From: a virus
Lineage: Duplodnaviria > Caudoviricetes
Virus record (IMG/VR): IMGVR_UViG_3300025015_000027
Location: 3,186 to 67,185 of that record
Strand: one strand, 5' to 3'
DNA: 64,000 nucleotides
Shown here: one piece after another, positions 523-61,688 of the stretch
Layout of the letters: each line of letters starts with the position of its first letter
Position numbering within the stretch: the stretch's first letter is position 1
The notes under the pieces: generated by a model
The model's input: the letters and a program-made list of their open reading frames with translations, nothing else
The model's database searches: none
Told to the model about the DNA's origin: nothing
Translations under genes and position numbers: made by a program

Positions 523-3300
523 TTATCCATTAATTGCTATACCTATTTGAACCCATTGATCCGCTTGCTTAACAAATACAATAGTTGTTCCAGCAGCGCT
601 GACATGGGCTGCAGTTAAACAAAGAGTATCTGCAGCTCCACCCCATGCCGTATCTGTAAATGTAATACCTGCGCCACCACAGATAAGCGTAAGTAACTGA
701 CCTGTTATTCCACCGGTAATTGTTGTGAGTGTTTCTGCGCCAACAGCCGTCAGATAAACCACATTACTGGTAACTGCAATAGTGGTAGCGGCATCTAACG
801 CAACAACCTGAACCGTTGAACCATTTTGCGGAAGTGTAGAACTAATGCTCGGAACGCCAGCCCCCGATGTTACTAATACTCCACTGTTTGCCGTTGCAAT
901 AGAAGAAAGAACATCTGCTGCCGATGTATAAAGAAGCGTATTTGCTCCGCCAAATGTTGAAAGCCCCGTGCCTCCATCTGCTACTGCCAAATCCGTAATA
1001 CCGGTAATAACACCGCTATCAATATTTACGTTCGTCAATGCCTGATTATTAAGATCCTGTGCAGCGCTCCACGTTAATGCACCATCAATAGTAACACCCG
1101 CCATCGTTCCACCATTAATATCCACCGTAGTTACTATTCCTAAATCGGCTATAGTAATACCGGCGAATGTAGCTCCGCGTGAAAACACTGTCAGATCTGC
1201 AGAAGCGTCATATCTTAAAAATTCCACCTGTGCTCCGTTTAATTCCCCGGAGAAAAACATATCTACATCCGCAGTAGCTGCTGTTATATCGGTAATTTGA
1301 ATACCAATCCTGCATCCAATCGCCTGCCCTGTATCATCAGATATTCTGAAATCCACCCATCCCTGGTCATTAATTGCCGGAGTTTCCCTGTCTCTCTGTA
1401 AAATAGCGATTCGTCCTGTGGCAATATCTTCTGTTCCGGTAACGGTTAATACATCATTACTGCCATTACTTGCAAACACCGTTGTAAACACAGCTGTTGA
1501 TGGAGTTGTTGCACCAATAGTCGTTCCATCTATCGCGCCACTATTAATATCAACATTTGTCATTTCATTGTTAGCAAAATCAATTTCAACGGCCCCGTCA
1601 CCCCCTAAGGTTAATTTTCCAGCTATATGTGTAATGGTTACATCACCGTTATTAAAATTGACCACCGAACCACTAGCTAAAAATAAATCAGACCACATCT
1701 CTGCAGCGGTTCCCAATGCCAATCCATCCGGTGTAACCGGAGAAAGAGATGTACCGATAAGTCGTAATTCATTGGCAAATACCCCACCGGATACAACGCC
1801 AAATAATAACTCCCCATCTTCACTCCCATCCGCTATATCAACGGCACCCCACGATATACGTGCATACTCGGTACTATTACTCAAGGAATCATTAAGCTGT
1901 AATGTCATGTAACCAATATCGGCATTGGCGGGAGCTAACCTTTGTCCCCTCAATATTGCCACCTGCACGGCTGCCGCATCGGCATTTTGTGTAATCCTTA
2001 AAACCCCATCCGCTGCGCTGGTTGATACCACCGCTCCGCTGCCATTTGGCAAAAGGGAAATATTGCCATTGGCCCCATCTACGATTTCAATACTTCCAGT
2101 TATGGCGTTTCCCGTCCTGAATATCATATTAAAATCTCCATCCGACTGCACAATACCGGAACTGGCTCCATCTCCTACATTTAGAATGGAATTTGTTCCA
2201 TTATTCCATTGATAAGTAACTTGCTTTAAAACATTATCTGCCAACATATTTATTTGCAATCCCCCATCGGCACCGGCAGCAGCCGCATCTCGTATAGTAA
2301 AAATAAGATTACCCGTGGTCTTCACGGTTCCGGCATCATCTTTTGCCCTGCCCACTATCCTTAAAGCGGTATCACCAGATACTCCAACTGCTGCTCCTGC
2401 CCTGCTATGTGTGCCAGTAATAATCATGCCATCTGCGGCATCGGCAGTATCTAAAAGAGCTAGATTACCGTTTTTGCTAACGTTAAATACGCTGGTTCCG
2501 CCAACTTGTAAATCCATTAATAATGAGGCTGCGTTACTAGCGGTATCGGTTACATTTAAAAACCATCCGGTAAATGTATCGGCAACATCATTCCACGCTA
2601 CCGTATTGGAAATACCAGATTTTGGATCTGTAATTGCACCCTGTGTAATCGTCTGTCCTATATTAAAAGCATTATCTGCCGAATGAACCGCTATATTGCC
2701 GGTGACATCCTGAAAAGATTGAACCCTATCTGCAGTTAAATTAGCAAGATTAAGTCCCATATAGGATGCTTCATCAGGGGCTTTTATCCTTAATACGGTA
2801 GTAGTGCCACCTCCTAGTTCATCAAATTTAATATATCCGACAATAACACCATCTCCTCCACCCTCAATTTCTAATCCGGTAGCAGTTGCGCCAACTAATG
2901 TGCCTTCCCTGTTTAACCTTATTAATTTATCTGTAATGGCAAGATTGGTAGTATCTATTGTAGTTGTTGTTCCATTTACGTCCAGATTGCCAGGAATAAC
3001 CGTTGTGGTATCTGCAGCGCCAATGGTTATGGTAGATGCAGCGGGAACATCCTCCCAAATGGAAAATACCGTTCCAACAGCGTGGGTTGTTATGGTATCG
3101 GACAACTCCAATTCCTTGTCATCGTCAATAACAACAGCAGAACCGGTTGCTTCAAATCCCAAGACATTAGAAAATAAATTACCAAGAGATATCTTGTAAT
3201 TTTTAGCCCCTCTGGTTGTTTGTCTTGTAACTCCTAAATAAAATCCTCCACCAGATTGAATATCATCAATAGATGGAAGTCCAAGTACGCCATTAATCAT
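523..3300 (-). CDS. Long tail fibre protein
   Basis: 925 aa, G/T/A/D-rich, with fibre-type repeats (NVDINSGAIDGTTIG, ITDLAVADGGTG) and a C-terminal beta-sandwich-like tip. Lies in the tail module. Confidence 0.75.
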   Translation of the reverse strand: MINGVLGLPSIDDIQSGGGFYLGVTRQTTRGAKNYKISLGNLFSNVLGFEATGSAVVIDDDKELELSDTITTHAVGTVFSIWEDVPAASTITIGAADTTTVIPGNLDVNGTTTTIDTTNLAITDKLIRLNREGTLVGATATGLEIEGGGDGVIVGYIKFDELGGGTTTVLRIKAPDEASYMGLNLANLTADRVQSFQDVTGNIAVHSADNAFNIGQTITQGAITDPKSGISNTVAWNDVADTFTGWFLNVTDTASNAASLLMDLQVGGTSVFNVSKNGNLALLDTADAADGMIITGTHSRAGAAVGVSGDTALRIVGRAKDDAGTVKTTGNLIFTIRDAAAAGADGGLQINMLADNVLKQVTYQWNNGTNSILNVGDGASSGIVQSDGDFNMIFRTGNAITGSIEIVDGANGNISLLPNGSGAVVSTSAADGVLRITQNADAAAVQVAILRGQRLAPANADIGYMTLQLNDSLSNSTEYARISWGAVDIADGSEDGELLFGVVSGGVFANELRLIGTSLSPVTPDGLALGTAAEMWSDLFLASGSVVNFNNGDVTITHIAGKLTLGGDGAVEIDFANNEMTNVDINSGAIDGTTIGATTPSTAVFTTVFASNGSNDVLTVTGTEDIATGRIAILQRDRETPAINDQGWVDFRISDDTGQAIGCRIGIQITDITAATADVDMFFSGELNGAQVEFLRYDASADLTVFSRGATFAGITIADLGIVTTVDINGGTMAGVTIDGALTWSAAQDLNNQALTNVNIDSGVITGITDLAVADGGTGLSTFGGANTLLYTSAADVLSSIATANSGVLVTSGAGVPSISSTLPQNGSTVQVVALDAATTIAVTSNVVYLTAVGAETLTTITGGITGQLLTLICGGAGITFTDTAWGGAADTLCLTAAHVSAAGTTIVFVKQADQWVQIGIAING

Positions 3301-3366: not shown

Positions 3367-3765
3367 TTAAAAGTTATTAATATCCTTATTCGTTTCAAAT
3401 ACTTCCTTCACCCTACCAACTATTAACGGTAAGATGTAAATTTTCTCAACGCGCTCCTGAATAAACGCTAATTCTTTCAGGGTGAAATCCGGTTCTTCGC
3501 CTGAAAAAACCTTTTTCGTGATTTGATACATCTGCACCTTTTGTTCAACAGTTAATTTCTCACCCTCCTCTTGCGAATTTAATGCTGTAAAAAAAACATC
3601 TCTAAAGGTCAATGGCGCAGATAAAAGCAATTTGAGTTTTTGTAAAATGTCTTCTTTTTGGCCTTTTTCTATTGATTGAATAAGGGAGGCAGTAATAATA
3701 ATTGTTCCCTGTTGAAATGACTTGCCCTCGTAATCAAGAATTGGCTCCGTGAGTTTTATTTTCAT
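3367..3765 (-). CDS. Putative tail-fibre assembly chaperone
   Basis: 132-aa helical, charged protein directly downstream of a fibre gene, a position typical of fibre chaperones. Function inferred. Confidence 0.45.
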   Translation of the reverse strand: MKIKLTEPILDYEGKSFQQGTIIITASLIQSIEKGQKEDILQKLKLLLSAPLTFRDVFFTALNSQEEGEKLTVEQKVQMYQITKKVFSGEEPDFTLKELAFIQERVEKIYILPLIVGRVKEVFETNKDINNF

Positions 3766-3836
3766 AAGTTATAATTTTCATCAATATATTTTTGTGCTTC
3801 AGTTATTAACAGGTTTTCTGTTTTATTCAAATCCAT
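3762..3836 (-). CDS. Possible 24-aa micro-ORF (MDLNKTENLLITEAQKYIDENYNL)
   Basis: Its TGA overlaps the ATG of the next gene (ATGA), suggesting translational coupling. Confidence 0.3.
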   Translation of the reverse strand: MDLNKTENLLITEAQKYIDENYNL

Positions 3837-3874
3837 AACATCAAAAAATATTATTTCTATACAAAAGATAATAA

Positions 3875-5962
3875 TTATACAATACTCGTTATTATTCCGT
3901 CTTTTGCCGTAATTGTCTTTCCGTCCACTGTCGTCCACGTGCCTGATACTCCAGCACTGCCATCGGCTGATTTATAACCATTTGATTGAAGATAAGAACC
4001 ATCATATAACAGTGTTGAATAATCTAACAATCGCCCATTGGTTGTTGCGACAGGAATTCTACCTAATATTAAATTCGTTCCATTGTTTAAAATAATTCCT
4101 TTCCTCGCAGCCCCCGTTGTAATCGTAAAAAACAAATCATCGGTTGTAAATTCAATCGCCCCCGCTTCTGCTACTGTTAGTGAAGTTCCGGACGTTAATT
4201 TTAAAGGAGATGTACTTGCCGTGGCAGTTCCCGCTTTTAAATGAAAATAAGCTGTTCCACTTGCACCCGTATTTGATAAATTCCCGCCATTTTCAATCCG
4301 CCACCTTTCAGTTGGACCGGCAACAGCAGTTGCTGTTCTAAATTCTATCCTGCCTGGAATATATGTTGCTCCTGCAACTCCGTCTTGAATTCCGTAAATA
4401 TAGGCGCCATAAGCGATTATATTTGCCGAATTAATTCCTGAAAATATTATTATTCCCAATGCTTCGCCATTTGCAGTAACGGTCTTTGTTCCAATAGTTG
4501 CAGAACTTGATTTTTGAAATATGAGTCCGGGAGAATGACCATCCGTTGCAGAGAATGATGCTATTTCACAATAGGTTGAGGAACTGCCACCTGCGAATTG
4601 TAACTTAATATTTGCGGCAGAAGAAGTTGTACGTCCAATTAAAAATTCGCCCGTTGATAAAAATCTCGCCACATTCGTTGTTGAACCGATGTTGAATATT
4701 ATGTTTCCGGTTGTTGCCGTTGAATTTGCGTACAGCGTCAATGCTCCTCCCGCGGAACTGCTTCCGTATATGACGGGACAGGTTAATGAAGTTGTAAGCG
4801 TTGGAGAAGCCGACCACGCAGGCGCAACGCCAACCCCACCCGATATTAAAACACTCCCTGTCGCTACATCGGCAAGTTTTGAAAGTGTTGTCACTGCGGA
4901 AGCATAGAGCAGGTCTCCAACAGCATAAAATGACTGACCATTACCGCCATAGGCAGCCCCTAAAGGAGTAGTTATTGAAGCAATCGTCCCAAGTCGTGTA
5001 ATATTATCCTGAACGGCATCCGGTAACGTAGAAGCGATTGATGGCACACCTGCACCGGAAGTTATTAATATCCCATTATTAGCCGTTGCAAGTCCCTGAA
5101 CGACATTCGCTCCATTAGAATATAGGATTTCACTTGCAGCATAGGTGTCTGCAAAGGTTGCCGTTGAATAAAGTAAGTCGGTGCCATCACTGCGTAATAT
5201 TTTACCGCTTGTACCTAATGCCAAAGCACTCCACTTAGGCGTTAAATTGCCAGTTATAATAGAACCCCTGAGAACACCAGCCGCTAATGTATCTGAATGT
5301 GTTACTGAAAGTAAATCATGGGGAGTAACCGAAGTTAAATATCCTGAATCATTTACAAATTGACTTATGTTCATGGATACAAATTCCGCCTTTAGTCCAT
5401 TTGCATCAGGAACTGTCAGATTGATAGTTGCAGAGTTTTGCTTTTTTATAATCGCGGAGATTATGTTTCCAGCGTCATCATAGGTGAAATCAATGGAATT
5501 GGTATCTGTCAGTATCCCTCCGATGGCATCCTGCGCCATCTCATCTGTATATTGGGTTATTGTGCATGCTAACGTCAGTGCCGCCAACGATAACCCGGCG
5601 CCAACACTTATCTCCTCTGTATCTCCAGCCAATGCCGTTGTACGTCCCAATAGACGTAATGTGTTGATGTTTTGGAACTTGGCAAAGGTTATGGCATCAT
5701 TTGTAATCGTTAATGTTCCTGCTGCATCCATGGCAGCATCACCAACGATGGTTTTATATACGGAGTTAGCGCCTGTTTGCCCTATTATTAATTGCCCATC
5801 TGTTCCTCCACTTAAAAGGGGAACCATCGCCGGAGTAAAAAGGTCGCCATAGGTTATTCTATATAATTTTTCACCACCGGAGACAATTTTGGATAATAAA
5901 AAATTATAATCTTCCCATCCTTTTACCTTTTTTATCCTTGGAAATTCACTGATGTTCAGCAT
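3875..5962 (-). CDS. Tail fibre protein
   Basis: 695 aa, G/A/T/S-rich. Ends in the common fibre motif GVSGTWTTVDGKTITAKDGIITSI and shares a module with the 925-aa fibre. Confidence 0.75.
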   Translation of the reverse strand: MLNISEFPRIKKVKGWEDYNFLLSKIVSGGEKLYRITYGDLFTPAMVPLLSGGTDGQLIIGQTGANSVYKTIVGDAAMDAAGTLTITNDAITFAKFQNINTLRLLGRTTALAGDTEEISVGAGLSLAALTLACTITQYTDEMAQDAIGGILTDTNSIDFTYDDAGNIISAIIKKQNSATINLTVPDANGLKAEFVSMNISQFVNDSGYLTSVTPHDLLSVTHSDTLAAGVLRGSIITGNLTPKWSALALGTSGKILRSDGTDLLYSTATFADTYAASEILYSNGANVVQGLATANNGILITSGAGVPSIASTLPDAVQDNITRLGTIASITTPLGAAYGGNGQSFYAVGDLLYASAVTTLSKLADVATGSVLISGGVGVAPAWSASPTLTTSLTCPVIYGSSSAGGALTLYANSTATTGNIIFNIGSTTNVARFLSTGEFLIGRTTSSAANIKLQFAGGSSSTYCEIASFSATDGHSPGLIFQKSSSATIGTKTVTANGEALGIIIFSGINSANIIAYGAYIYGIQDGVAGATYIPGRIEFRTATAVAGPTERWRIENGGNLSNTGASGTAYFHLKAGTATASTSPLKLTSGTSLTVAEAGAIEFTTDDLFFTITTGAARKGIILNNGTNLILGRIPVATTNGRLLDYSTLLYDGSYLQSNGYKSADGSAGVSGTWTTVDGKTITAKDGIITSIV

Positions 5963-27070: not shown

Positions 27071-29197
27071 ATGATAGAATTTAACAAAAAAATCCAAACA
27101 AAATTTACAGAACTATCAAAGACTGGTAAACTATTTAGAATAGAATTAACAAATCAACAAATTTGGGATTTATATTTAAGTTCTTTTTCCAAAAAAAATA
27201 ATCCAATTTTCCGTGATCCAAACAGCACTTCAAAAAACTGCACCCATTGCAAAAACTTCATTCACAAATACGGAAACATTGTATCGGTAGATGAAAATTA
27301 CAATATAGATACAATGTTTAATATAACTATTAACGATGAATTTAAAAACACCACAAAAGTCTTATCCGATGCAATAAAAACATCAAAGATTACAGAAGTA
27401 TTTTTAGAAACATTTAATAACCTGAATTCATTACCTTATGAATCATGCAATAAATCAAACAAGGTTTTTCAATTAGGTGTTGCAAATAATCTAAAACGAT
27501 ATACGAAAGAAGAATCTGAAAAATTTGGAGTTGTAAAACCAAACGAAATAAGAATATTCAATCACATACACTTGTTTCTTGAAAAAGATTTTGTTGATAC
27601 GTCGGGCAACTCTGTTGAATCCTTAATGGGAAACTACCGTGATGCAAAAAATGTTTTTCAAAGAACAATGGAAACAATTTCTTTAGACACATTAAAATTG
27701 GTTAAAGATTTAATCAACCAAGGTTCTTTACTTGACGGTGCAACACACCTGTATAAAATTGAGCAAATAATTCCATTAAAAGAAGAATACGACAACTTAC
27801 TCACAAAACAAAAAGATAACTGGTGTTGGGTAAAATCTTACAAATTACCATTTGCTAAATTCAAAAACGAATTGATTGGTGTTTTATGTTCTGAACTATC
27901 GGAAGGAAAAGAACTGAATAAAGCATGTCAATCATGGAACAAAAGAGTTGACCCCGCCAACTACATGAAAGTTACTGCTCCGATTACCAAAAAACAAATT
28001 GAAGAAACAAAACTATTTGTTGAAAAAAACAAATACACAGAATCTTTCAATAGAAGATTTGCAACCATTGATGATATTAAAGTCTCCGAAATTTTGCATT
28101 CAAATATTGGCAAAAAGGAAATAAAATCGGTATCAATTTTTGACGGAATAAAATCAACCCCAACAAGACACAAAAGAAACGAATTTGAGGGAGTAGAAGA
28201 AGTAACCATTGATAAGTTTATGAAAGACATACTGCCATCATGTTCATCGGTAGAAGTATTTTTAACAAACAACCAACAAGGCAATCTAGTGTCCTTAACA
28301 ACTGCCAACAATGTTGATTCAAAACCTATTTTTAAATGGAACAATAATTATTCATGGACTTTTAACGGCAACCTTGCCGGTAAATCTCAAATCAAAAAAG
28401 CAGTGAAAATAAGGGGCGGTAAAATTGATGGTGTTCTACGGTTCTCAATGATTTGGAATGAAGAAGGTTCTGATAATTCTGATTTAGACGCATGGTGTCA
28501 ACAACCAGACAAACAACAAATCGGATTTAACACCGGTTACAGAAAAGACAGAAACGATAACAAAAGTTCTTGTTCTGGACAACTCGATTTAGATAATACC
28601 CACCCAAACGAAAAATTGGCAGTAGAAAATATTTACTTTACTGACATTCATAAAATGAAAGACGGGGTTTACCATTTTTGGGTAAATCAATATAAGAACG
28701 TACGTTCTTTAGGATTTAAAGCCGAAATAGAATTTAATGATGAACTGTTTAATTACGAATACAACAAAACCGTACTGTATAATGTAATGGTCGCAGAAGT
28801 AACATTAAAAGATAAAAAGTTTACAATTAAACACATACTGCCTGAATCAACGATTGCTTCAAAAGAGATTTATGCACTTGAAACAAATCAATTTCATAAA
28901 GTAAACCTGATTTGCCTTTCTCCAAATCATTGGGGGGAAAACAATGTAGGCAATAAACATTATTTTTTTATGTTAGATGGTTGTAAATCACCTGTGTCAA
29001 TCAGGGGTTTTCATAATGAAAACTTATTATCTGAATTAGCACAGCACAGAATGGTTCTAGAAGTACTTGGAACAACTAATATGATTGAAACAACCGACAA
29101 ACAGTTATCAGGAATTGGTTTCAATGCAACTGTTCGGGATGAACTCATACTAAAACTACAGGGCACACATAAAAGAATAATCAAAATTAAATTTTAA
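27071..29197 (+). CDS. Large conserved phage protein with C-terminal YfaP/DUF2135-like domain
   Basis: N-terminal C-x2-C (CTHC) and LRFSMIW...DLDAWC...QLDLD...AVENIYF...YHFWVNQY. Confidence 0.6.
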   Translation: MIEFNKKIQTKFTELSKTGKLFRIELTNQQIWDLYLSSFSKKNNPIFRDPNSTSKNCTHCKNFIHKYGNIVSVDENYNIDTMFNITINDEFKNTTKVLSDAIKTSKITEVFLETFNNLNSLPYESCNKSNKVFQLGVANNLKRYTKEESEKFGVVKPNEIRIFNHIHLFLEKDFVDTSGNSVESLMGNYRDAKNVFQRTMETISLDTLKLVKDLINQGSLLDGATHLYKIEQIIPLKEEYDNLLTKQKDNWCWVKSYKLPFAKFKNELIGVLCSELSEGKELNKACQSWNKRVDPANYMKVTAPITKKQIEETKLFVEKNKYTESFNRRFATIDDIKVSEILHSNIGKKEIKSVSIFDGIKSTPTRHKRNEFEGVEEVTIDKFMKDILPSCSSVEVFLTNNQQGNLVSLTTANNVDSKPIFKWNNNYSWTFNGNLAGKSQIKKAVKIRGGKIDGVLRFSMIWNEEGSDNSDLDAWCQQPDKQQIGFNTGYRKDRNDNKSSCSGQLDLDNTHPNEKLAVENIYFTDIHKMKDGVYHFWVNQYKNVRSLGFKAEIEFNDELFNYEYNKTVLYNVMVAEVTLKDKKFTIKHILPESTIASKEIYALETNQFHKVNLICLSPNHWGENNVGNKHYFFMLDGCKSPVSIRGFHNENLLSELAQHRMVLEVLGTTNMIETTDKQLSGIGFNATVRDELILKLQGTHKRIIKIKF

Positions 29198-29228
29198 TTA
29201 AGTTAATCAACAATTAAATCAAAATCAA

Positions 29229-29600
29229 ATGGAAAACTTTAAATTAGCAAGTCAGCAAAAGCTAAGATTTCAAACCAATAAAGGTTTGTTATCAACAGAA
29301 CAATTATGGGACTTATCCCTCAAAGATCTAGATATTTTGGCGGTATCTTTAGAAATCGAACATAAACAGTTGGCAAAAAAATCTTTCTTGACTAAAACAT
29401 CCATAAAAGATAAAACAATCAAACTAAGATTTGATGTTGTATTTGACATCTTAAGCACTAAAATAGCCGAAGAAGAAGCCATTACTGAAGCAATGGAAAT
29501 TAAAGAACACAACAAAAAGATTCTTTCTTTAATTGCAGAAAAGCAAGATGAATCATTGAAAGATAAATCAATCAAGCAACTTGAAACCATGTTAAAATAG
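29229..29600 (+). CDS. Conserved phage protein, partner of the upstream gene
   Basis: KLRFQT.KG.LSTEQLWDL motif with coiled-coil C-terminus. Confidence 0.7.
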   Translation: MENFKLASQQKLRFQTNKGLLSTEQLWDLSLKDLDILAVSLEIEHKQLAKKSFLTKTSIKDKTIKLRFDVVFDILSTKIAEEEAITEAMEIKEHNKKILSLIAEKQDESLKDKSIKQLETMLK

Positions 29601-29609
29601 CTAAAGATT

Positions 29610-29680
29610 TGACGGGTCGTCTAATAGTAGGACGCAGGAGTCTGGTTCCTGAAATTGTGGTTCAAATCCACGCCCGTCAA
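29610..29680 (+). tRNA. tRNA-Gln (anticodon CTG)
   Basis: Acceptor TGACGGG/CCCGTCA, D-arm GTCT..GGAC, anticodon arm CAGGA-GTCTGGT-TCCTG, T-arm TGTGG-TTCAAAT-CCACG. No encoded CCA. Confidence 0.88.
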
Positions 29681-29682
29681 CT

Positions 29683-29934: not shown

Positions 29935-30111
29935 ATAGCCTAGTCATCACAGAATTTAATTTAAAAAACAAAACCTGAAATACGAAACAAACTTTAATTA
30001 GAATACTAAAAGCATTGCATAAATTTAGTATTATGTGTAGTTGTTTTTCTGGTTTCCACAGTTAAACCATTATTTCAAGACAAGAATTTTCAACTTTTAA
30101 ATTCAATAACC

Positions 30112-30852
30112 ATGAAAATATTTCAAAGCAGAAACATCAATGATTACAAACCAATTCTTGAAGGATTAGTAGAAGATTGGGGATATATTTATTGGTCATC
30201 AATCTTAAAATGGTGCAACATAATTAATAATCCCATAGATGGTAAATATTGGGAGGTATGGATTATAGAATACGAAAATAAAATTATTGGAATTTGCGGA
30301 TTATGGTCGCAGAAAGCAAACTCCATTGAAGAACTTTGGCTTGGATGGTTCGGCTTAATTCCAGAGATGAGAAATAAAAAAATAGGCAATGATATTATCA
30401 AATTCATGGAAAATGAAGCAAAAAGATTAGGAACTAAAAAGATATTGTCTTACGTTGATAAAGACGGGAAACCATTAAACTTCTATTTTAAAAATGGCTA
30501 TGAAAGAATTTGCTCCGTAAGAGAATATCTTAAAAAAAACCCAACAGCATTAGAAAATGATTTTCAAGACAAGGACGACCATATTATTTCTAAACTTTTA
30601 ACTTTTACGGAAATTGAAATTACAAATATGCAGAAAGATAATTTAAAAAACGAAACCTCCACTGACGCAAATAATATATTAACAAAAGGATTACCCATAG
30701 ATAATATAATACATATTGATATAAAGAAATTCATCATATGGTTATTCCACAAGGATGAATGGCATTATGATAGTACAGAAAATTTATGGAAGCAAGATGG
30801 TTACGGAAGTAAAACAATAGATGAACTTTATTTATACTACCAAACTAAATGA
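30112..30852 (+). CDS. GNAT acetyltransferase fused to an unrelated C-terminal ORF
   Basis: LWLGWFGLIPEMRNKKIG acetyl-CoA loop and NFYFKNGY. A second ATG at 30628 begins an unrelated segment. Confidence 0.75.
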   Translation: MKIFQSRNINDYKPILEGLVEDWGYIYWSSILKWCNIINNPIDGKYWEVWIIEYENKIIGICGLWSQKANSIEELWLGWFGLIPEMRNKKIGNDIIKFMENEAKRLGTKKILSYVDKDGKPLNFYFKNGYERICSVREYLKKNPTALENDFQDKDDHIISKLLTFTEIEITNMQKDNLKNETSTDANNILTKGLPIDNIIHIDIKKFIIWLFHKDEWHYDSTENLWKQDGYGSKTIDELYLYYQTK

Positions 30853-30856
30853 CACA

Positions 30857-30938
30857 AGCGTATATTAGCGGTGTGCGTGGGGTTTGTGCGTGAGCCAGTT
30901 TTGTTTTATTAAATTAAATTTTTGCGAGAGAAACTTTT
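30857..30938 (+). repeat. Right-arm remnant of attC-like site plus conserved downstream tail (site C)
   Basis: AGCGTATATTAGCGGTGTGCGTGGGGTTTGTGCGTGAGCCAGTT is similar to 36575-36625 AGCGTATATATGGTGTTACCTGTGTGCGGTGGGATTGTGTGTAAGCCAGTT. Confidence 0.6.
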
Positions 30939-30953
30939 AAACCAAATATAAAA

Positions 30954-31292
30954 ATGACAATAAAAAAATTCAAAAACGGACAATGGATAATTGCAAAATG
31001 GGAAGGTGGCGATATTGACTTCGCCAAATTCCAGACATACTTTGAGAAAAATGAGTTTTTGACAAGCCAATTTTATCGTTTTCAGCAAGATGGCAAAATT
31101 GAAACTTTAACTAGTAAAGAAAGCTGCGACTTGACTAATTGTAGATACGAGGAAAATTGGCGACTTGCTACAAAAAAAGAAATTAATAAATATATTAAAC
31201 TGTGCGGTGGGAAAATTCAATTTAATAAAACAAAATTACCGCTAACGAGCCGAGTGCTTGCGAAGTTGGCTTTTGCCTCTCACAAATGTTAA
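30954..31292 (+). CDS. Hypothetical cassette gene
   Basis: 112 aa, its end runs into palindrome D. Confidence 0.6.
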   Translation: MTIKKFKNGQWIIAKWEGGDIDFAKFQTYFEKNEFLTSQFYRFQQDGKIETLTSKESCDLTNCRYEENWRLATKKEINKYIKLCGGKIQFNKTKLPLTSRVLAKLAFASHKC

Positions 31293-31381
31293 TTAAAAGA
31301 ACTAAACTATAAAATTATGACAAACGAAAATTTGGAACACAAAACAGCAAAAGACAATTTTGTTAAGCACTGTGTTAGCGG
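31239..31381. repeat. attC-like imperfect palindrome D
   Basis: CCGCTAAC-GAGCCG-AGTGCTT-GCGAAGTTG-G-CTTTTG ... CAAAAG-A-CAATTTTGT-[T]-AAGCACT-GT-GTTAGCGG. Confidence 0.75.
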
Positions 31382-31577
31382 AAATTTTTTCTCTGCTCTC
31401 GTAGATGCACATAAATTTTTTGTTGAGAAATCGCCATCATTTGTTGGTAGGATGAACATTAAAGCAGACAGATATATTATGAGTTGGAAGGAAAAAATTT
31501 ATTATCCAATAGCATACTGCAAGTTTATGAGTAGCTGTATCGGTGATTGGAAACGGCAGAGAAAAAATTTACGCTAA
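31317..31577 (+). CDS. Hypothetical cassette gene
   Basis: Starts inside the loop of palindrome D. Its stop TAA lies within the inverse core (CGCTAAC) of palindrome E. Confidence 0.6.
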   Translation: MTNENLEHKTAKDNFVKHCVSGNFFSALVDAHKFFVEKSPSFVGRMNIKADRYIMSWKEKIYYPIAYCKFMSSCIGDWKRQRKNLR

Positions 31578-31710
31578 CGACGAGTATCAGGGTTTAAGAA
31601 GTGGCGGATTAAAAGCACGAAAGTTATGAAGAATCACAGCAGTTTATTAAAAGCACAAACGGTCAAAGATGGCACTGAACCCGCCATTTCTTTAAACCCT
31701 GTGTTATCTG
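31572..31710. repeat. attC-like imperfect palindrome E
   Basis: CGCTAAC-GACGAGTAT-CAGGGTTTAA-GAAGTGGCGG ... CCGCCATTTC-[T]-TTAAACCCTG-T-GTTATCTG. Confidence 0.78.
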
Positions 31711-31806
31711 CTGCCGCTTTCACTGAACTTAAATCGAAGCACAAGAAAAAAGAAAAATTTTAGCGAGGGAAATTCATTTAATCATTAACAAATAAAAATC
31801 AAAATT

Positions 31807-32394
31807 ATGCCAACAGGTTACACACACTCAATCAGCGAAGGAATATCCTTTGAAAAGTTTACGCTTAACTGCGCAAAAGCATTTGGTGCTTTAATCTCAA
31901 TGAGAGATGAACCAAATGATGCACCAATACCAACAGAAATAAAGCCAAGCGATTGGAACGCTAAAGCACTAAAGAAAGCACAATCGGATTTAAAGAAGTA
32001 TGAGGAAATGAAACTTTCGGAAGCAGAAAAACTTTGCCAAAAGGATTACGATAATGAACTGAAACGAATTGCAGAAAGCGAATTGAAAGATGCAAAATTA
32101 AAAACTGATTACGAATTGCTATTGGCTAAAGTAAAGAAGTGGACACCGCCAATACCCGAACACGAAGGACTGAAAAACTTTATGATTGAGCAGATTGAAA
32201 GTAGTATCAAATGGGATTGCGAACACGAAAGAAGTAAACCTAAAAAACAAAATGCAGAGCAATGGTTACTTGCACAAAAACGCCAAGCTATAAAGGATAT
32301 TGACTACCATACAAAAGCCAATAATGAAGAAATTGACTGCTGTGCAAAAAAAACAAAATGGATACAGGACTTAATTAAATCATTAAACAATTAA
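31807..32394 (+). CDS. Conserved phage protein (MPTGYT family)
   Basis: MPTGYT...F..F...CA.AFGA.I.MRD N-terminus, recurrent in phages, function unknown. Confidence 0.75.
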   Translation: MPTGYTHSISEGISFEKFTLNCAKAFGALISMRDEPNDAPIPTEIKPSDWNAKALKKAQSDLKKYEEMKLSEAEKLCQKDYDNELKRIAESELKDAKLKTDYELLLAKVKKWTPPIPEHEGLKNFMIEQIESSIKWDCEHERSKPKKQNAEQWLLAQKRQAIKDIDYHTKANNEEIDCCAKKTKWIQDLIKSLNN

Positions 32395-32490
32395 GAGCGT
32401 GGGCAAAATTTTTCTTTTTTCTCTTTCAAGTTACCACGAACTTCAATACGGAGCAAGGCGGTTGCAGCTAACGGTTGCAGGTTTGAGAAG
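32395..32490 (+). repeat. Repeated leader plus left arm of truncated attC-like site F
   Basis: GAGCGTGGGCAAAATTTTTCTTTTTTCT...AATACGGAG...GCAGCTAACGG mirrors 36002-36089. Confidence 0.6.
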
Positions 32491-32512
32491 TTTAAAAAAT
32501 ACCAATAAAAAA

Positions 32513-33232
32513 ATGACAACAATCAATTTAGAAAAATCTCTTATTAGAGAAAACAGAAAACTGGCAATGCCAAAAGAATTACTACTCATAAATGAGTATG
32601 ACAAGTTCACTCCATTGGTGGAAAACGATGCACTTTCAAGAGTTGGATTAAACAGAACATTAAAAGAGGGCAAGAACATCAAGAATAGGATAAACCGAAA
32701 ACAGGAGCAAACAAAAGTATTTACACAAGAAAAAGTTTTTCATATAAGCCAAATAAAAGGCATTTGTGAAAAATATCGTTTGCGTTTTTTGCCAACACAA
32801 AAATACAGAGGCATTATTGATAACGATTTACCAAACAGAATTTCAACTTTTGAGGTTGCATATAATTTGAAATGCACAGAATACAATACAAGAATTGTTG
32901 CACCAATGGAAAGTTTTGAATTAGAAAAAAGACCAAAAGACCCATTGATGTTTTATGAAATAAATGACGAATACTTTTACCTAATTCACAAATGGGGAAA
33001 CGACCTTAGTTTAAGCAGGGAAATATTGCCTTTGTTTGAAAGCGGTTTATTCTGCTGGCTGTTTATTCCACTTGTATTTACTGCTTTATTTCTTATAAGT
33101 TTTAAAGTTGGAGTAATTGCAACGATAATCGCTTTTGTTTTATCATCAATTATTCAGGCGGCAACTTGGATGACAGTAGATGAACCAATGAGATTTTTGA
33201 AACCGAATACTTGGAATAGCGAATATGAATAA
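32513..33232 (+). CDS. Conserved phage protein with C-terminal transmembrane hairpin
   Basis: Probable start MTTINLEKS at 32513, KDPLMF...YLIHKWG motif, hydrophobic tail. Confidence 0.65.
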   Translation: MTTINLEKSLIRENRKLAMPKELLLINEYDKFTPLVENDALSRVGLNRTLKEGKNIKNRINRKQEQTKVFTQEKVFHISQIKGICEKYRLRFLPTQKYRGIIDNDLPNRISTFEVAYNLKCTEYNTRIVAPMESFELEKRPKDPLMFYEINDEYFYLIHKWGNDLSLSREILPLFESGLFCWLFIPLVFTALFLISFKVGVIATIIAFVLSSIIQAATWMTVDEPMRFLKPNTWNSEYE

Positions 33233-33296
33233 ACCTTTTAAGGTTTTAAAAAAACTTACAGTGCGAGGGCTATTTATTTTTAAAACAAACAACGAT

Positions 33297-34130
33297 ATGA
33301 CAACAATCAATTTAGACAAGAACTTTCAACCCTACGGACAGGGAATTGAATTTCAGGATTTCGTTTTCCCAAGTGGTTGCGAAGTTCACATAAAGTTACC
33401 GAAAATTGAAGATACAAAGGTGTTGCTTACAACACGAATAAAATCTTCTGATGATGTAATGAAATTACTTATGGCTACTGATGCTTTAAAGCGTTGTGGA
33501 GTAAAAGAAATTGAATTATTGATGCCATACCTACCCTATGCAAGACAGGATAGGCAAATGGTAAAAGGCGAACCACTTTCATTGAAAATATTTGCCGACT
33601 TGCTGAACTCATTGAACTTTGCAAAAGTCTCTGTTTATGATGTGCATAGTGAAGTTTCACTCGCACTAATAAATAACAGTGAGGCAATAGACAATCACAA
33701 ATTTGTTGCAGAAGTTTTAAAAGGTGATACGGATTACTACATTATTTCGCCTGATGCTGGTGCTTACAAAAAGATTTTCAAACTGTGCCAACATTTGAAA
33801 TACAAAGATGAAATAATCATGTGCAACAAACTCCGTGATGTTTCAAATGGAGTTATCCGTTCCCCGACTGTGAGCCACAAAGATTTAGGAGGCAAAAACT
33901 GTTACATTGTAGATGACATTTGTGATGGTGGTGGAACATTCATTTTGCTTGCCGATGTTTTGAAAGAACGAAATGCAGGAAAAGTAAATCTTATTGTTTC
34001 TCACGGTATTTTTTCAAAAGGCGTAAATGCTTTGGCTAACATCAATCACATTTACACTACCAATGCTTTCAATGATTGCGAACCGAATAATAAACTAACT
34101 CAAATAAAATTATGCAGCACCCTTATTTAA
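33297..34130 (+). CDS. Ribose-phosphate pyrophosphokinase-like enzyme (Adps-like, NARP1)
   Basis: FPSGCEVHIK, PYLPYARQDR, DVHS, SPDAGA, IVDDICDGGGTF (PRPP-binding loop) and VSHGIFS. Probable start MTTINLDK at 33297. Confidence 0.9.
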   Translation: MTTINLDKNFQPYGQGIEFQDFVFPSGCEVHIKLPKIEDTKVLLTTRIKSSDDVMKLLMATDALKRCGVKEIELLMPYLPYARQDRQMVKGEPLSLKIFADLLNSLNFAKVSVYDVHSEVSLALINNSEAIDNHKFVAEVLKGDTDYYIISPDAGAYKKIFKLCQHLKYKDEIIMCNKLRDVSNGVIRSPTVSHKDLGGKNCYIVDDICDGGGTFILLADVLKERNAGKVNLIVSHGIFSKGVNALANINHIYTTNAFNDCEPNNKLTQIKLCSTLI

Positions 34131-34510
34131 GCGATACCGCCTGTGTTTACAGGCTGGTTGATGAATATAAAAAATATGGCAGTTTGGTTATTGCCTATGA
34201 CTTTGATAATTGTGTTTACGATTATCATTCCAAAGGACACAATTACATTGAGGTAATTGAATTACTGAAACAAGCAAAAGAAATAAACTGCTTTATGATT
34301 GTTTTTACTGCTGAAAAAGATTTGGAAAAAGTAAAAAAAATACTGAATGAATTACAACTTCCTTTTGATGCAATAAATGAAAATCCTCCATTCTTCAAAT
34401 CCGATGCAAGGAAAATTTATTTCAACTTGCTTTTGGATGATAGAGCAGGATTGCTTTCCGCTTACGAACAATTAAAACAAACTATTAACATAATTAAAAA
34501 CAAAATCTAA
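34112..34510 (+). CDS. HAD-superfamily hydrolase (capless)
   Basis: VIAYDFDNCV (DxD motif I), IVFTA (motif II), KIYFNLLLDDRAG (motifs III/IV). Confidence 0.75.
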   Translation: MQHPYLSDTACVYRLVDEYKKYGSLVIAYDFDNCVYDYHSKGHNYIEVIELLKQAKEINCFMIVFTAEKDLEKVKKILNELQLPFDAINENPPFFKSDARKIYFNLLLDDRAGLLSAYEQLKQTINIIKNKI

Positions 34511-34511
34511 A

Positions 34512-35981
34512 ATGAAAAACAATCCAGCAAATCAAATTGACTTCTACAAAGCTGACCATAGAAGCCAGTATCCGAAAGGAACTGAAATTGTGTTTAGCAA
34601 TTTAACTCCTCGCACAAGCCGAAATAAGGAGATAAAAGAAGTAGTGTTTTTCGGACTGCAATACTTTGTAAAAGAGTATTTAATTAGCCGATGGAACGAA
34701 GATTTCTTTCAGCAACCGAAAGAGAAAGTTGTAAATGATTACAAGCGTAGAATTGAAACTTCGCTTGGCAAAGGAGCAATTACCTTTGAACACATTGAAG
34801 CATTGCACGACTTGGGATATTTGCCTATGGAAATAAAAGCATTACCCGAAGGAAGTTTAATACCGATGCGTTGCCCTTGCTTGGTAATGTTCAATACTAA
34901 AAAAGAATTTTTCTGGCTGACAAATTATTTTGAAACTATTTTGAGTTGTGTAATTTGGGGAGCAATTACTTCGGCTACAACTGCTTACCAATACAAAAAA
35001 TTGCTTACTGAATTTGCAGACAAAACAGTTGGCAACCGTGATTTTGTGCAATGGCAAGGACACGATTTTTCTTTTCGTGGAATGTTCGGGTATGAAGCTG
35101 CTTGCATTAGCGGGGCTGCTCACTTGCTTTCATTTACGGGAACGGACACAATACCCGCAATAGATTTTCACGAAAAATATTATGGTGCTGATGCCGATAA
35201 AGAATTGATTGGGGCAAGTGTTCCAGCAACCGAACATTCGGTTATGAGTATGGGGACGCAAGAAAATGAAATTGCAACCTTTGAAAGACTGATTTCAGAA
35301 ATTTATCCGAATGGAATTGTAAGTATCGTTTCTGATACTTGGAATTTTTGGAAAGTGATTACTGAATACTTGCCACAACTGAAAGAAAGAATACTTGCCC
35401 GAAATGGTAAAGTAGTTATTCGCCCTGATAGTGGCGACCCTGTGAAAATTATTTGCGGTGATAAAGATGCACCGATTGGAACACCTGAATACAAAGGAGC
35501 AATAGAATGTATGTGGGAAGTGTTTGGAGGCACTACAACCGAAAAAGGATATAAACTTTTAGACGGACATATTGGATTGATTTACGGTGATAGTATTACG
35601 GTTGAAAGATGTAAACAAATTTGTGGGCAACTTGCAGACAAAGGATTTTGTTCTTTTAATGTAGTGTTTGGGATTGGCTCTTACACTTACCAATATGTAA
35701 CCCGTGATACTTTCGGATTTGCAGTAAAAGCAACCTACGGAGAAGTGAATGGAGAAAGCAGGGCAATTTTCAAAACTCCGAAAACTGATGATGGCACAAA
35801 GAATAGTGCAAAAGGACTGATTGCAATTTACAAATCAGAGAACGGAAACGGATATGATATGCACGATGGATTAAATTGGAAAGAGGTAAATAACTGTGAA
35901 CTGAAAACTGTGTTTAAAGATGGTAAAATTGAGAACGAACAAACACTATCACAAATCAGGGAACTTTTAAAAACCTTTTAA
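34512..35981 (+). CDS. Nicotinamide phosphoribosyltransferase-like enzyme (Namat/NadV-like, NARP1)
   Basis: DFYKADH, HDFSFRG, VPATEHSVM, SIVSDT, VIRPDSGDP, LIYGDSIT, FGIGS, KNSAKG. Confidence 0.92.
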   Translation: MKNNPANQIDFYKADHRSQYPKGTEIVFSNLTPRTSRNKEIKEVVFFGLQYFVKEYLISRWNEDFFQQPKEKVVNDYKRRIETSLGKGAITFEHIEALHDLGYLPMEIKALPEGSLIPMRCPCLVMFNTKKEFFWLTNYFETILSCVIWGAITSATTAYQYKKLLTEFADKTVGNRDFVQWQGHDFSFRGMFGYEAACISGAAHLLSFTGTDTIPAIDFHEKYYGADADKELIGASVPATEHSVMSMGTQENEIATFERLISEIYPNGIVSIVSDTWNFWKVITEYLPQLKERILARNGKVVIRPDSGDPVKIICGDKDAPIGTPEYKGAIECMWEVFGGTTTEKGYKLLDGHIGLIYGDSITVERCKQICGQLADKGFCSFNVVFGIGSYTYQYVTRDTFGFAVKATYGEVNGESRAIFKTPKTDDGTKNSAKGLIAIYKSENGNGYDMHDGLNWKEVNNCELKTVFKDGKIENEQTLSQIRELLKTF

Positions 35982-36079
35982 TTTTTTGAAAAAAAATAGG
36001 AGAGCGTGGGCAAAAATTTTTTCTTTTTTTCTTCCTCAATTAACCGATGAAGTTAAATACGAAGATGGATGCCCGCTTT

Positions 36080-36214
36080 CATATAACGGATTGGGGCTTA
36101 AAGAAGTGGCGGATAAAAGCAGAAAACTATCTATGGAAAACGGAACTCAAATACAAGTAACAAACGGTATTAAAAATGATGCACCCACCATTTCTTTTAA
36201 GCTCTCGTTATATG
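36080..36214. repeat. attC-like imperfect palindrome G
   Basis: CATATAAC-GGATT-GGGGCTTAAA-GAAGTGGCGG ... CCACCATTTC-[T]-TTTAAGCTCT-C-GTTATATG. Arms are homologous to site E. Confidence 0.78.
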
Positions 36215-36516
36215 CTGATTCATTTTTTATTGCGGGTAGAAAAACTCAAATTATAATGGCATTAGCAAGACCAACACCAACTTGCCCTTATTGTGGTAAA
36301 GCAACAGGAAAAGGAATATACAAAGATGAAAGTGATGTGTCGAGATTTATGCGATTAATTGGCGATACATTTCTTAGATGGGAACACAAAGAATGTAGCT
36401 GTAAGGGAGCAAAGAAGGCACGAAAGGAGCATAAAAAAGCAATGGAAAAACTCCATAAAGAACACCCGATTGATTGGAAGAAAATGTTTGAAGGTAAGGC
36501 GGGAGGCAAAAAATGA
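36133..36516 (+). CDS. Zinc-finger-like cassette gene (start at 36133 or 36256)
   Basis: CPYCGK...CSC. The track start at 35986 only reads through the repeat element. Confidence 0.55.
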   Translation: MENGTQIQVTNGIKNDAPTISFKLSLYADSFFIAGRKTQIIMALARPTPTCPYCGKATGKGIYKDESDVSRFMRLIGDTFLRWEHKECSCKGAKKARKEHKKAMEKLHKEHPIDWKKMFEGKAGGKK

Positions 36517-36521
36517 ATTTG

Positions 36522-36596
36522 CGTATAACGTAAAAGTATATGCGCTGTTGTGCGTTGCTTGTGGGTGGGAAAATAGCGTATATATGGTGTTACCTG
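36522..36596. repeat. Short attC-like palindrome H
   Basis: CGTATAAC-GTAAAAG-TATATGCGCTGTT ... AATAGCGTATATA-TGGT-GTTACCTG. Confidence 0.68.
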
Positions 36597-36682
36597 TGTG
36601 CGGTGGGATTGTGTGTAAGCCAGTTGTAAATTTTTATTAAACATTTTAGCGAGGAAATTTTAATCATTTAATCATAAAAAAT

Positions 36683-37876
36683 ATGGAAACAGCAAAATAT
36701 AAATTATCAAAAGATAAAGTTCTTGTCCTAAAAACAGCAAATTGTAACGGTAAAACCTACCTTGATTTCCAATATCCCAAAAAAGGAATGGTTCAATGCG
36801 AAGATTGGATTGACAATAACAGATGTGGAAATGGTTTACATGGTGCATTAAAGGGCGAAGGTAATGGTTCATTGTTCAGCTGGGATATTAATGCTATATG
36901 GTTGGTTATAGAAGTCAATTTATCGGATATTCGTGATTGTGATGGAAAAGTAAAATTTCCAAATGGCAATGTTATATATTATGGAAATAGAAAAAAGGCA
37001 ACAAGAATTATATATGAAACATATCACACTGCTGTTATTGGTGGTACGGCAACAGCAGGAGACGAAGGCACAGCAACAGCAGGATACAGAGGTACAGCAA
37101 TAGTAGGATACAGGAGTACAGCAATAGCAGGAGACAACGGCAAAGCAACAGCGGGAAACGAAGGCACAGCAATAGTAGGATACAAAGGTACGGCGATAGC
37201 AGGGAACAAAGGTACAGCAACGGCAGGAAACAAAGGTACAGCAACAGCAGGAGACGAAGGCACAGCAACAGTAGGGGACAACGGCACAGCAACAGCGGGA
37301 GACGAAGGCACAGCAACAGCAGGAGACAGAGGTACAGCGATAGCAAGATACAGAGGTACAGCAACAGCAGGAGACGAAGGTACAGCGATAGCAAAATACA
37401 AAGGTACAGCAACGGCAGGAGACGAAGGCAAAGCAACAGCAGGATACAGAGGTACAGCAATAGTAGGATACAGGAGTACAGCAATAGCAGGAGACAACGG
37501 CAAAGCAACAGCGGGAAACGAAGGCATAGCAATAGTAGGATACAAAGGTACGGCGATAGCAGGGAACAAAGGTACAGCAACGGCAGGGAACAAAGGTACA
37601 GCAACAGCAGGAGACGAAGGCACAGCAACAGTAGGATACAGAGGTACAGCAACGGCAGGGAACAAAGGTACAGCAACAGCAGGAAACGAAGGCACAGCAA
37701 CAGCAGGAAACGGAGGCACAGCAGCAGCGGGGAAAAAGGGAATACTAATCATTGAATATTTTCATTCAGGAATTCGCAAAAAAATAGGATACATCAGAAA
37801 AAATGGATTATGTGCCGGAAAAAAGTATAAACTTAATTCTGATTTTAAATTCATCAAAGTTAAAACAAGTGTATAA
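36683..37876 (+). CDS. Phage protein with an octapeptide (GTATAGxx) repeat solenoid
   Basis: N-terminal domain (FQYP..G.V...DW......CGNGLHG), about 28 eight-residue repeats, and C-terminal K.....LCAGKKYKL. Confidence 0.8.
   Translation: METAKYKLSKDKVLVLKTANCNGKTYLDFQYPKKGMVQCEDWIDNNRCGNGLHGALKGEGNGSLFSWDINAIWLVIEVNLSDIRDCDGKVKFPNGNVIYYGNRKKATRIIYETYHTAVIGGTATAGDEGTATAGYRGTAIVGYRSTAIAGDNGKATAGNEGTAIVGYKGTAIAGNKGTATAGNKGTATAGDEGTATVGDNGTATAGDEGTATAGDRGTAIARYRGTATAGDEGTAIAKYKGTATAGDEGKATAGYRGTAIVGYRSTAIAGDNGKATAGNEGIAIVGYKGTAIAGNKGTATAGNKGTATAGDEGTATVGYRGTATAGNKGTATAGNEGTATAGNGGTAAAGKKGILIIEYFHSGIRKKIGYIRKNGLCAGKKYKLNSDFKFIKVKTSV
37042..37730 (+). repeat. 24-bp coding tandem repeat with a 360-bp-offset block duplication
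   Basis: Unit GGTACAGCAACAGCAGGA+6 nt. Line 37081-37140 is identical to 37441-37500. Confidence 0.9.
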
Positions 37877-61392: not shown

Positions 61393-61478
61393 ATACGGCA
61401 TTTAAGATATACTGTATTTGAACCGTCCGGATTTCCATTGGGGGTCACCGGTATGCCGTATTACGTGGTGGAAGCCAC
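61393..61478 (-). ncRNA. Putative C4/CI-like antisense RNA
   Basis: A 9-bp stem ATACGGCAT/ATGCCGTAT encloses the 20-nt perfect complement (61415-61434) of the leader sequence at 61630-61649. Confidence 0.5.
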
Positions 61479-61616: not shown

Positions 61617-61688
61617 AGTCCAGAGTTGTAAATCCGGACGGTTCAAATATTTTCCCGCTTGATGACCGTGGCTTCATAAAGCATACCG

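Follow-up and report, generated by a model that had tools for sequence, protein, structure and literature searches.

A 64,000-nucleotide stretch of viral DNA, positions 3,186 to 67,185 of IMG/VR record IMGVR_UViG_3300025015_000027 and here called the window, contains several imperfect palindromes that open with TAAC, close with GTTA and lie among accessory genes. The question raised by this locus is whether these palindromes are sites of the attC type known from integrons, at which genes are moved as cassettes, and which recombinase might act on them in a phage. The evidence presented below makes it probable that three of them, named D, E and G, are attC-type folded-hairpin recombination sites which bound mobile units and belong to the integron family of Bacteroidota.

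The source record was obtained from groundwater metagenomes, is 67 kb long and has a CheckV completeness of 43%; the sites are located within a rightward gene block. An earlier reading of the window made from its letters alone (the sequence-only reading) had called the phage crAss-like, and this label is fair because its major capsid protein (MCP) shares 35-37% identity with the MCPs of Crassvirales.

Hairpin sites in the window

Every TAAC...GTTA pair spaced 50-170 nt apart in the window was scanned, giving 155 pairs. D, E and G were clear outliers and ranked as the top three of the 155, with duplex energies of -39.4, -34.7 and -33.6 kcal/mol, respectively, against -26.6 kcal/mol for the next best pair, and folding predicted a long imperfect hairpin in single-stranded DNA (ssDNA) for each of them. 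Site D (31238-31384, + strand; TAAC 31243-31246, GTTA 31374-31377) is the strongest hairpin in the window and has a perfect 8-bp outer box, CCGCTAAC / GTTAGCGG. Site E (31573-31713, + strand) has its TAAC at 31575-31578 and its GTTA at 31703-31706, and the TAA stop codon of the open reading frame (ORF) 31317-31577 sits in its TAAC core. Site G (36079-36217, + strand; TAAC 36084-36087, GTTA 36207-36210) has the outer box CATATAAC / GTTATATG. In all three sites the unpaired spacer is asymmetric, being longer on the 5' arm (5-9 nt) than on the 3' arm (1-2 nt), and the latter arm has a single bulged T roughly 9 nt ahead of GTT. The arms of E and G are homologous to each other. The + strand holds the G-T (G-U) pairs and folds better than the other strand for D and E. 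The inverse core and core boxes AAC...GTT, present also in the family alignment described below, thus occur here together with an ssDNA hairpin that has an unpaired central spacer and a strand-marking extrahelical base, as in attC sites. The spacer asymmetry, the extrahelical T, the homology between the E and G arms and the position of the stop codon had all been pointed out in the sequence-only reading and were seen again in our folds and alignment.

The same reading had counted four full palindromes and four remnants, which was too many. D, E and G stood, being energy outliers that also matched the covariance models R1 and R2 (see below). The fourth palindrome, H (36522-36596, + strand; TAAC 36526, GTTA 36592, 67 nt core-to-core), located directly after the stop of ORF 36133-36516, is a real hairpin that folds on the + strand only. 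With -22 kcal/mol it was no outlier among the 155 pairs, and it had no significant match with R1 or R2; it was not upheld as a site and is kept as a possible, unvalidated short one. Among the remnants, F (32464-32492, + strand) could be recognized as a truncated 5' half-site that retains the TAAC (32469-32472), the spacer and about 12 nt of arm and has lost its 3' part. Its left arm and about 75 nt of its upstream flank align with the left arm and flank of G (direct repeats 32371-32427 / 35978-36034, repeat family D2). The other three remnants did not hold: 29960-30050 had no significant R1 support (11.8 bits, E-value 0.64), 30651-30690 had no R1 match, and around 30857-30900 the segment 30857-30935 resembles, by eye, the 3' half of H with the promoter-like module downstream of it, a pair that the repeat search did not report. 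The inventory of the window is thus small and partly decayed, with three full sites, a half-site (F) and a doubtful site (H).

A site family shared with integrons of Bacteroidota

A two-arm pattern built from the arms of E and G was searched in viral contigs and bacterial genome contigs, and recovered six viral contigs and 41 loci in genome contigs. This pattern was used instead of a plain 14-mer scan of the viral contigs, which was dropped since only one of its 80 listed loci was real and the rest were mostly chance matches. Thirty-six of the 41 genome loci were found in genomes of Bacteroidota, Ignavibacteriota or Balneolaceae, four were excluded as chance matches because the loop was not conserved, and one belonged to a contig binned as Myxococcales (L230), which is probably phage DNA.

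The family alignment displayed sharp edges at TAAC and GTTA with variable flanks, compensatory changes in the outer stem and an invariant G-T pair. In the consensus, the stem has 19 bp, its 3' arm carries a bulged T and the spacer measures 6 nt / 2 nt; the loop, about 75 nt long, shows conservation within subfamilies, and that of E is homologous to the loops of bacterial sites. A second extrahelical G as in attCaadA7 was not evident in the folds or the consensus of the family. The covariance model R1 was calculated from this alignment, with E in the training set and D held out, and scored D at 38.4 bits (E-value 7e-8) and the training member E at 109 bits.

The bacterial sites of the family cluster as arrays with one ORF per interval. 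Of 401 genomes sampled from the phylum, 113 encode the integron integrase IntI (TIGR02249, above the curated cut-off). Twenty IntI-centred loci were fetched and searched directly with R1; a genome-wide R1 search of 40 IntI-positive genomes had mostly missed the integrase-adjacent arrays, as few candidates were scored. In the 20 loci R1 gave 59 matches distributed over 13 loci, and all 59 were located upstream of intI on the intI strand. The cassette ORFs were divergent from intI and each was followed by a site, which is the canonical integron layout, so that the "+" strand of R1 corresponds to the bottom strand relative to the cassette genes.

A second covariance model, R2, was trained solely on these 59 integrase-adjacent bacterial sites. 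When both strands of the 64 kb were searched with R2, the top three matches were G (34.7 bits, E-value 7e-5), E (27.2 bits, E-value 0.002) and D (15.5 bits, E-value 0.38), all on the + strand. The R2 consensus repeated the family layout, including the 6-nt / 2-nt spacer asymmetry and the bulged base on the 3' arm. Homology to arrays beside bona fide IntI thus confirmed that D, E and G belong to a family whose arrays in the chromosomes of Bacteroidota consist of single-gene cassettes.

The whole 67-kb record gave no match to TIGR02249 at E ≤ 0.001, in agreement with the earlier statement that the window lacks IntI, and a complete integron, with an attI and an intI carrying the IntI-specific insertion, was not found there. 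D and E, 190 nt apart, do form a cluster of attC sites lacking an integron integrase (CALIN; at least two attC within 4 kb and no IntI), while G, 4.37 kb from E, is a separate single site. The claim of attC-like, CALIN-like cassette sites is therefore borne out, with the homology to IntI-adjacent sites added to it.

Some bacterial sites of the attC type have mobile elements as neighbors. In genomes G003 and G001 (L263:6165-8230, L264 and L262:2427-4048) such a site is followed, about 150 nt further on, by genes for a Xer-like tyrosine recombinase and then an IS91-family transposase, and this arrangement occurred three times within 32 kb of one genome; the element appears to be an insertion sequence (IS) that targets attC-type sites. 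Two group II introns, one apparently without an ORF, were found at most about 100 nt from attC-type sites in a Flavobacteriaceae genome (L211:521-2257 and 3570-4048). A TIGR02249 search of five element-bearing bacterial genomes returned only Xer-like matches below the cut-off, some of which belonged to IS91-family elements, and these were not accepted as IntI.

Orientation of the sites relative to genes

The orientation of the sites differed between phages and bacteria. In bacteria only 12 of 129 site-flanking ORFs were co-oriented with the site and 117 of 129 were opposite, whereas in phages 47 of 48 were co-oriented (Fisher p = 2e-30). The phage set comprised the window, six contigs of the same lineage (L005, L021, L029, L035, L039, L056) and six other viral contigs. 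The arrangement of attC cassettes, with the ORF on the top strand and the site downstream of the gene, was thus not found in the phages. The sequence-only reading had proposed that the coding strand is the attC bottom strand, inverted relative to bacterial integrons; this proved correct and general to the phage copies.

The sign of the GC skew flips near 26-28 kb, along with the gene strand. Because the two flip together, a cause in replication cannot be separated from one in transcription, and it is speculation that the inverted sites would present their recombinogenic strand on the lagging-strand template.

Footprints of recombination

Within an integron, each cassette has at its far end bases that pair with the outer box of its site, so that neighboring sites are expected to be complementary in trans. 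In bacteria, trans complementarity was 4.79 of 6 bases, compared with 3.02 in cis and with 2.36 for pairs taken at random (p = 3e-20). The phage contigs gave 4.80 of 6, compared with 2.50 in cis and 2.62 for random pairs (p = 1.5e-6), and the arrays beside the phage recombinase described below reached 5.07 of 6 against 2.87 for random pairs (p = 6e-23), with 33 of 57 neighbor pairs being perfect. For the sites of the window, complementarity in trans extends to 22 of 23 nt between D-right and E-left (31374-31396 / 31556-31578; outer bases 5/6), to 5/6 between the flanks G-right and H-left, and to 4/6 between E-right and G-left, for which the value in cis is 2/6.

Breakpoints between related sequences were also located at the cores. 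In the phage contig pairs L209/L230 and L206/L207 homology ended exactly after TAAC. Contigs of another groundwater study carried 33261-36088 at 90-99% identity, and in two runs their match ended at 36088, the G of the TAACG core of site G, one of them continuing with 38 unlike bases. Relatives thus vary at the cores, where the sequence-only reading expected cassette gain and loss. Three contigs of the other study began to match at 36588, the right core of H. Read-mapping joints with sides of only 20-30 nt (31730>35972, 32499>35971, 36111>36182 and others) were not used, as they are unreliable and probably reflect repeats in other organisms.

For a wider comparison, 80 related contigs were collected via a shared 708-aa protein. 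Two conserved genes and a tRNA-Gln are located at 27071-29681, upstream of the variable region. Downstream of 29790, to beyond 43.5 kb, no sequence was common to the window and these 80 contigs except for the NARP1-like block in one of them (L019). The region is therefore hypervariable, and for the same reason these 80 relatives do not reveal whether units were gained or lost at D, E and G. A blastn search of the region and of site E against 50,697 isolate phage records returned NAMPT genes only, or nothing.

A candidate recombinase in related phages

A candidate enzyme was found in the relative L039, a complete genome of 265 kb that shares the 708-aa protein. Immediately following three R1 sites, it has a gene (L039:1601-2404) for a tyrosine recombinase of 267 aa. 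The protein is 32% identical to genuine IntI, lacks the IntI-specific insertion of about 50 aa and aligns end-to-end with Xer-like proteins. Relatives of it are encoded in 35 further viral contigs, with 62-81% identity for full-length matches and five fragments. R1 sites were detected in 31 of these 36 viral loci, about 115 of the 125 matches being directly upstream of the recombinase gene and on its strand, with small co-oriented ORFs between the sites. An IS607-family serine transposase and TnpB are located beside the recombinase/attC cluster of L039 (L039:3572-5317).

The sites of the window match these recombinase-linked phage arrays in site type and orientation; the recombinase itself is found in L039 and not in the 43% of the genome that is available. 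Because related phages have the same inverted arrays beside it, we lean towards the Xer-like class of phage recombinases as the enzyme for D, E and G, with host IntI as the alternative.

Proposed mechanism and alternative explanations

The strand which is the bottom, recombinogenic one in bacterial integrons is here the sense strand of the phage genes. We infer from these sequences that a tyrosine recombinase would cut the TAA|C core of the folded strand, so that units could be inserted, lost or exchanged. Each site would head a mobile unit, which would run from the C of TAAC through the hairpin and the downstream gene or genes to the TAA of the next site, and one such unit would carry the anti-defence block resembling the NAD+-reconstitution system NARP1. 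The recombinase may be encoded in the missing 57% of the genome, or may have acted in an ancestor. Whether this amounts to a phage-specific integron-like system is, in our judgment, evenly balanced. Such a system would consist of a small Xer-like recombinase without the IntI insertion and of inverted homologues of host attC heading the genes, perhaps with the start codon in the loop, and crAss-like phages would exchange whole anti-defence modules such as NARP1 as units of this kind.

Several observations weigh against D, E and G being recombination sites that bound mobile units. The 67-kb record, at 43% completeness, contains no match to a tyrosine recombinase. The window has three full sites only, with G about 4.4 kb from E and F truncated, and the unit from E to G holds five genes, far above the usual cassette. 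D was only marginal in the integrase-adjacent model R2 (E-value 0.38). The 4/6 complementarity between E and G is not significant alone, since about 29% of random pairs reach at least 4/6, and the short-sided joints in the comparison with contigs of the other study are unreliable. In addition, the point where the closest phage relative diverges, 29790, is a gene start with no site. Because of the few sites, the long multi-gene unit and the truncated F, this part of the genome may be a decaying outpost and not an active array.

The sites could instead be a CALIN served by host IntI alone, with no phage recombinase involved. This would fit the homology to sites beside genuine IntI genes, the frequency of the enzyme in the phylum (113/401) and a 67-kb record without a recombinase, and phage attC sites do recombine with IntI1 in published assays (PMC9892861). 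However, the phage sites are systematically inverted relative to bacterial cassettes (47/48 versus 12/129), and the phage units are therefore not ordinary host cassettes; the same inverted arrays moreover lie directly upstream of the phage Xer-like recombinase in 31 of 36 viral loci. We consider service by host IntI alone unlikely, although it is the most serious of the alternatives. A second possibility is that the hairpins now act mainly in RNA, in processing, stability, termination or translation start, and that recombination is historical. The co-orientation of phage sites with transcription (47/48 flanking ORFs), the G-U pairs and better folding of the + strand for D and E, and the ATG codons in the loops of D, E, G and several sites of the phage arrays all speak for such a role. 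The bacterial sites, however, show the same strand asymmetry though the other strand is transcribed there, and the trans complementarity and core-exact breakpoints require DNA recombination. Rfam searches of the region and of 16 related loci matched no family at the sites, the only hits being the tRNA and, elsewhere, group II introns. A mainly RNA-level function is thus improbable, and a role in RNA would not exclude one in recombination.

It is very improbable that the sites are an unrelated dispersed repeat resembling miniature inverted-repeat transposable elements or repetitive extragenic palindromes, moved by a transposase and only superficially similar to attC. The IS91-family elements with a Xer-like ORF and the group II intron that adjoin sites in some bacterial genomes could point that way. 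Both insertion sequences and group IIC introns are known to target attC, so that such neighbors are compatible with attC, and no target-site duplications were seen; the arrays beside IntI with one ORF per interval also argue against a dispersed repeat. Overall, attC-type recombination sites remain the preferred reading for D, E and G.

Units and genes bounded by the sites

All units and genes of the variable region described here are on the + strand. The unit from D to E (31246-31577, 332 nt) would consist of site D and the small ORF 31317-31577, and its ends are 23-nt inverted repeats. The unit from E to G (31578-36086, 4.5 kb) would contain site E and five genes and is split by the half-site F; since F retains the core, the spacer, an arm and a G-like flank, this unit probably arose from two units. 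Its genes are a phrog_8905 gene (31807-32394), the ORF 32513-33232 and the three genes of the NARP1-like block (33261-36086), namely a Prs-like gene, the ORF 34112-34510 and a NAMPT-like gene (34512-35981); the phrog_8905 gene and the block were assigned by Pfam/PHROG matches. The block extends from a GCGAGGG motif (33267) to the core of G, and its boundaries in other samples were at about 33261 and 36088. A putative unit from G to H (36087-36528, 442 nt), which is a unit only if H is a site, would contain site G and a Zn-ribbon-like ORF that starts either at 36133 inside the G loop or at the in-frame ATG 36256 past the hairpin.

In many phage units (L315, L308, L313 and, in the window, D, E and G) the start of the longest ORF lies in the loop, about 55-80 nt into the hairpin, and the frame continues across the 3' arm; in other phage units the longest ORF starts 8-44 nt past the site.

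Two genes in succession begin with a 20-nt direct repeat, ATGACAACAATCAATTTAGA (32513-32532 and 33297-33316), which makes up their first seven codons, and 33297 rather than 33225 is therefore the probable start of the Prs-like gene. The 784-nt segment with ORF 32513-33232 looks like an insertion between the two repeats. One contig of another groundwater study joins 34112 to 34509, and a NARP1-like relative without the 132-aa ORF (34112-34510) between the two enzymes may thus exist; with just 30 nt on the matching side this is a weak lead. Around the stop of the NAMPT-like gene (35863-35995, about 130 nt) the depth in the source runs was 3-4 times that of the surroundings, and separate contigs ended at 35863 and 35995, indicating a short segment shared with a more abundant genome.

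The motif GCGAG(A/G)G followed by an A/T-rich stretch occurs at 30919-30930, 31762-31770, 33267-33275 and 36648-36656, about 25-45 nt upstream of the starts at 30954, 31807, 33297 and 36683, and may be a phage promoter. At 30868 and 36596 the motif is preceded by a longer module, GTGTGCG..TGGG..AGCCAGTT. The 397-aa ORF 36683-37876 contains about 35 tandem copies of a 24-nt (8-aa) unit at 36947-37822, with a local GC content of 51%. A further 23-nt inverted repeat (61415-61437 / 61627-61649; 96% complementary, 189 nt apart) is located between two large minus-strand genes and is unrelated to the attC family.

Comparison with known systems and biological meaning

CALINs have been published in virulent phages, including a Polaribacter (Bacteroidota) phage, and were found to recombine with IntI1 (Qi et al., 2023, PMC9892861). 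The sites of the window share with them the AAC/GTT imperfect palindromes, the unpaired spacer and the bulged base, as well as the clustering, without IntI nearby, beside accessory genes of a virulent-type phage. They differ in being homologous to a specific attC family of Bacteroidota, in their systematic inversion relative to genes, in units that can be multi-gene, and in a stem of about 20 bp which closes a largely unpaired loop of about 75 nt and does not form a long palindrome.

Sedentary chromosomal integrons, for instance the one of Vibrio cholerae with its VCR (Vibrio cholerae repeat) sites, carry homogeneous, family-specific attC repeats along their arrays. The present family resembles them in its sites of about 125 nt, its mostly single small genes and the pairing of neighboring outer boxes in trans, but is found here in a phage record without IntI or attI and with the genes on the opposite strand. 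The phage arrays with the Xer-like recombinase are similar in their R1 site family, gene co-orientation, trans complementarity and related lineage (L039), while the window has three dispersed sites and one half-site, no recombinase and no dense array.

The promoter-stem-loop (PeSL) cassettes of T4-type phages, attributed to Arbiol et al. 2010, reportedly bound small genes in hyperplastic regions, and their shuffling probably uses homologous recombination between the repeats. The window is similar in having repeated intergenic stem-loop and promoter modules that bound small genes in a hyperplastic phage region, but its breakpoints fall within a folded site, at a core of 3-4 bases, in line with the chemistry of tyrosine recombinases. 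Our literature search found no paper on attC in crAss-like phages, on the systematic inversion or on a phage Xer-like recombinase with attC arrays, and a phage-specific system of recombinase and inverted sites appears undescribed in the literature searched.

Site-specific cassette exchange at folded hairpins would explain, in a concrete and testable way, why accessory regions are hypervariable in crAss-like phages and in other phages of Bacteroidota. The phage sites are tied by homology to the attC sites of host integrons, and the clean strand inversion between host and phage is a feature that any model of the system must account for. The site family can also serve as a host-phylum marker for uncultured phages. 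Finally, these findings suggest that counter-defence operons such as NARP1 can travel as cassette-like units.

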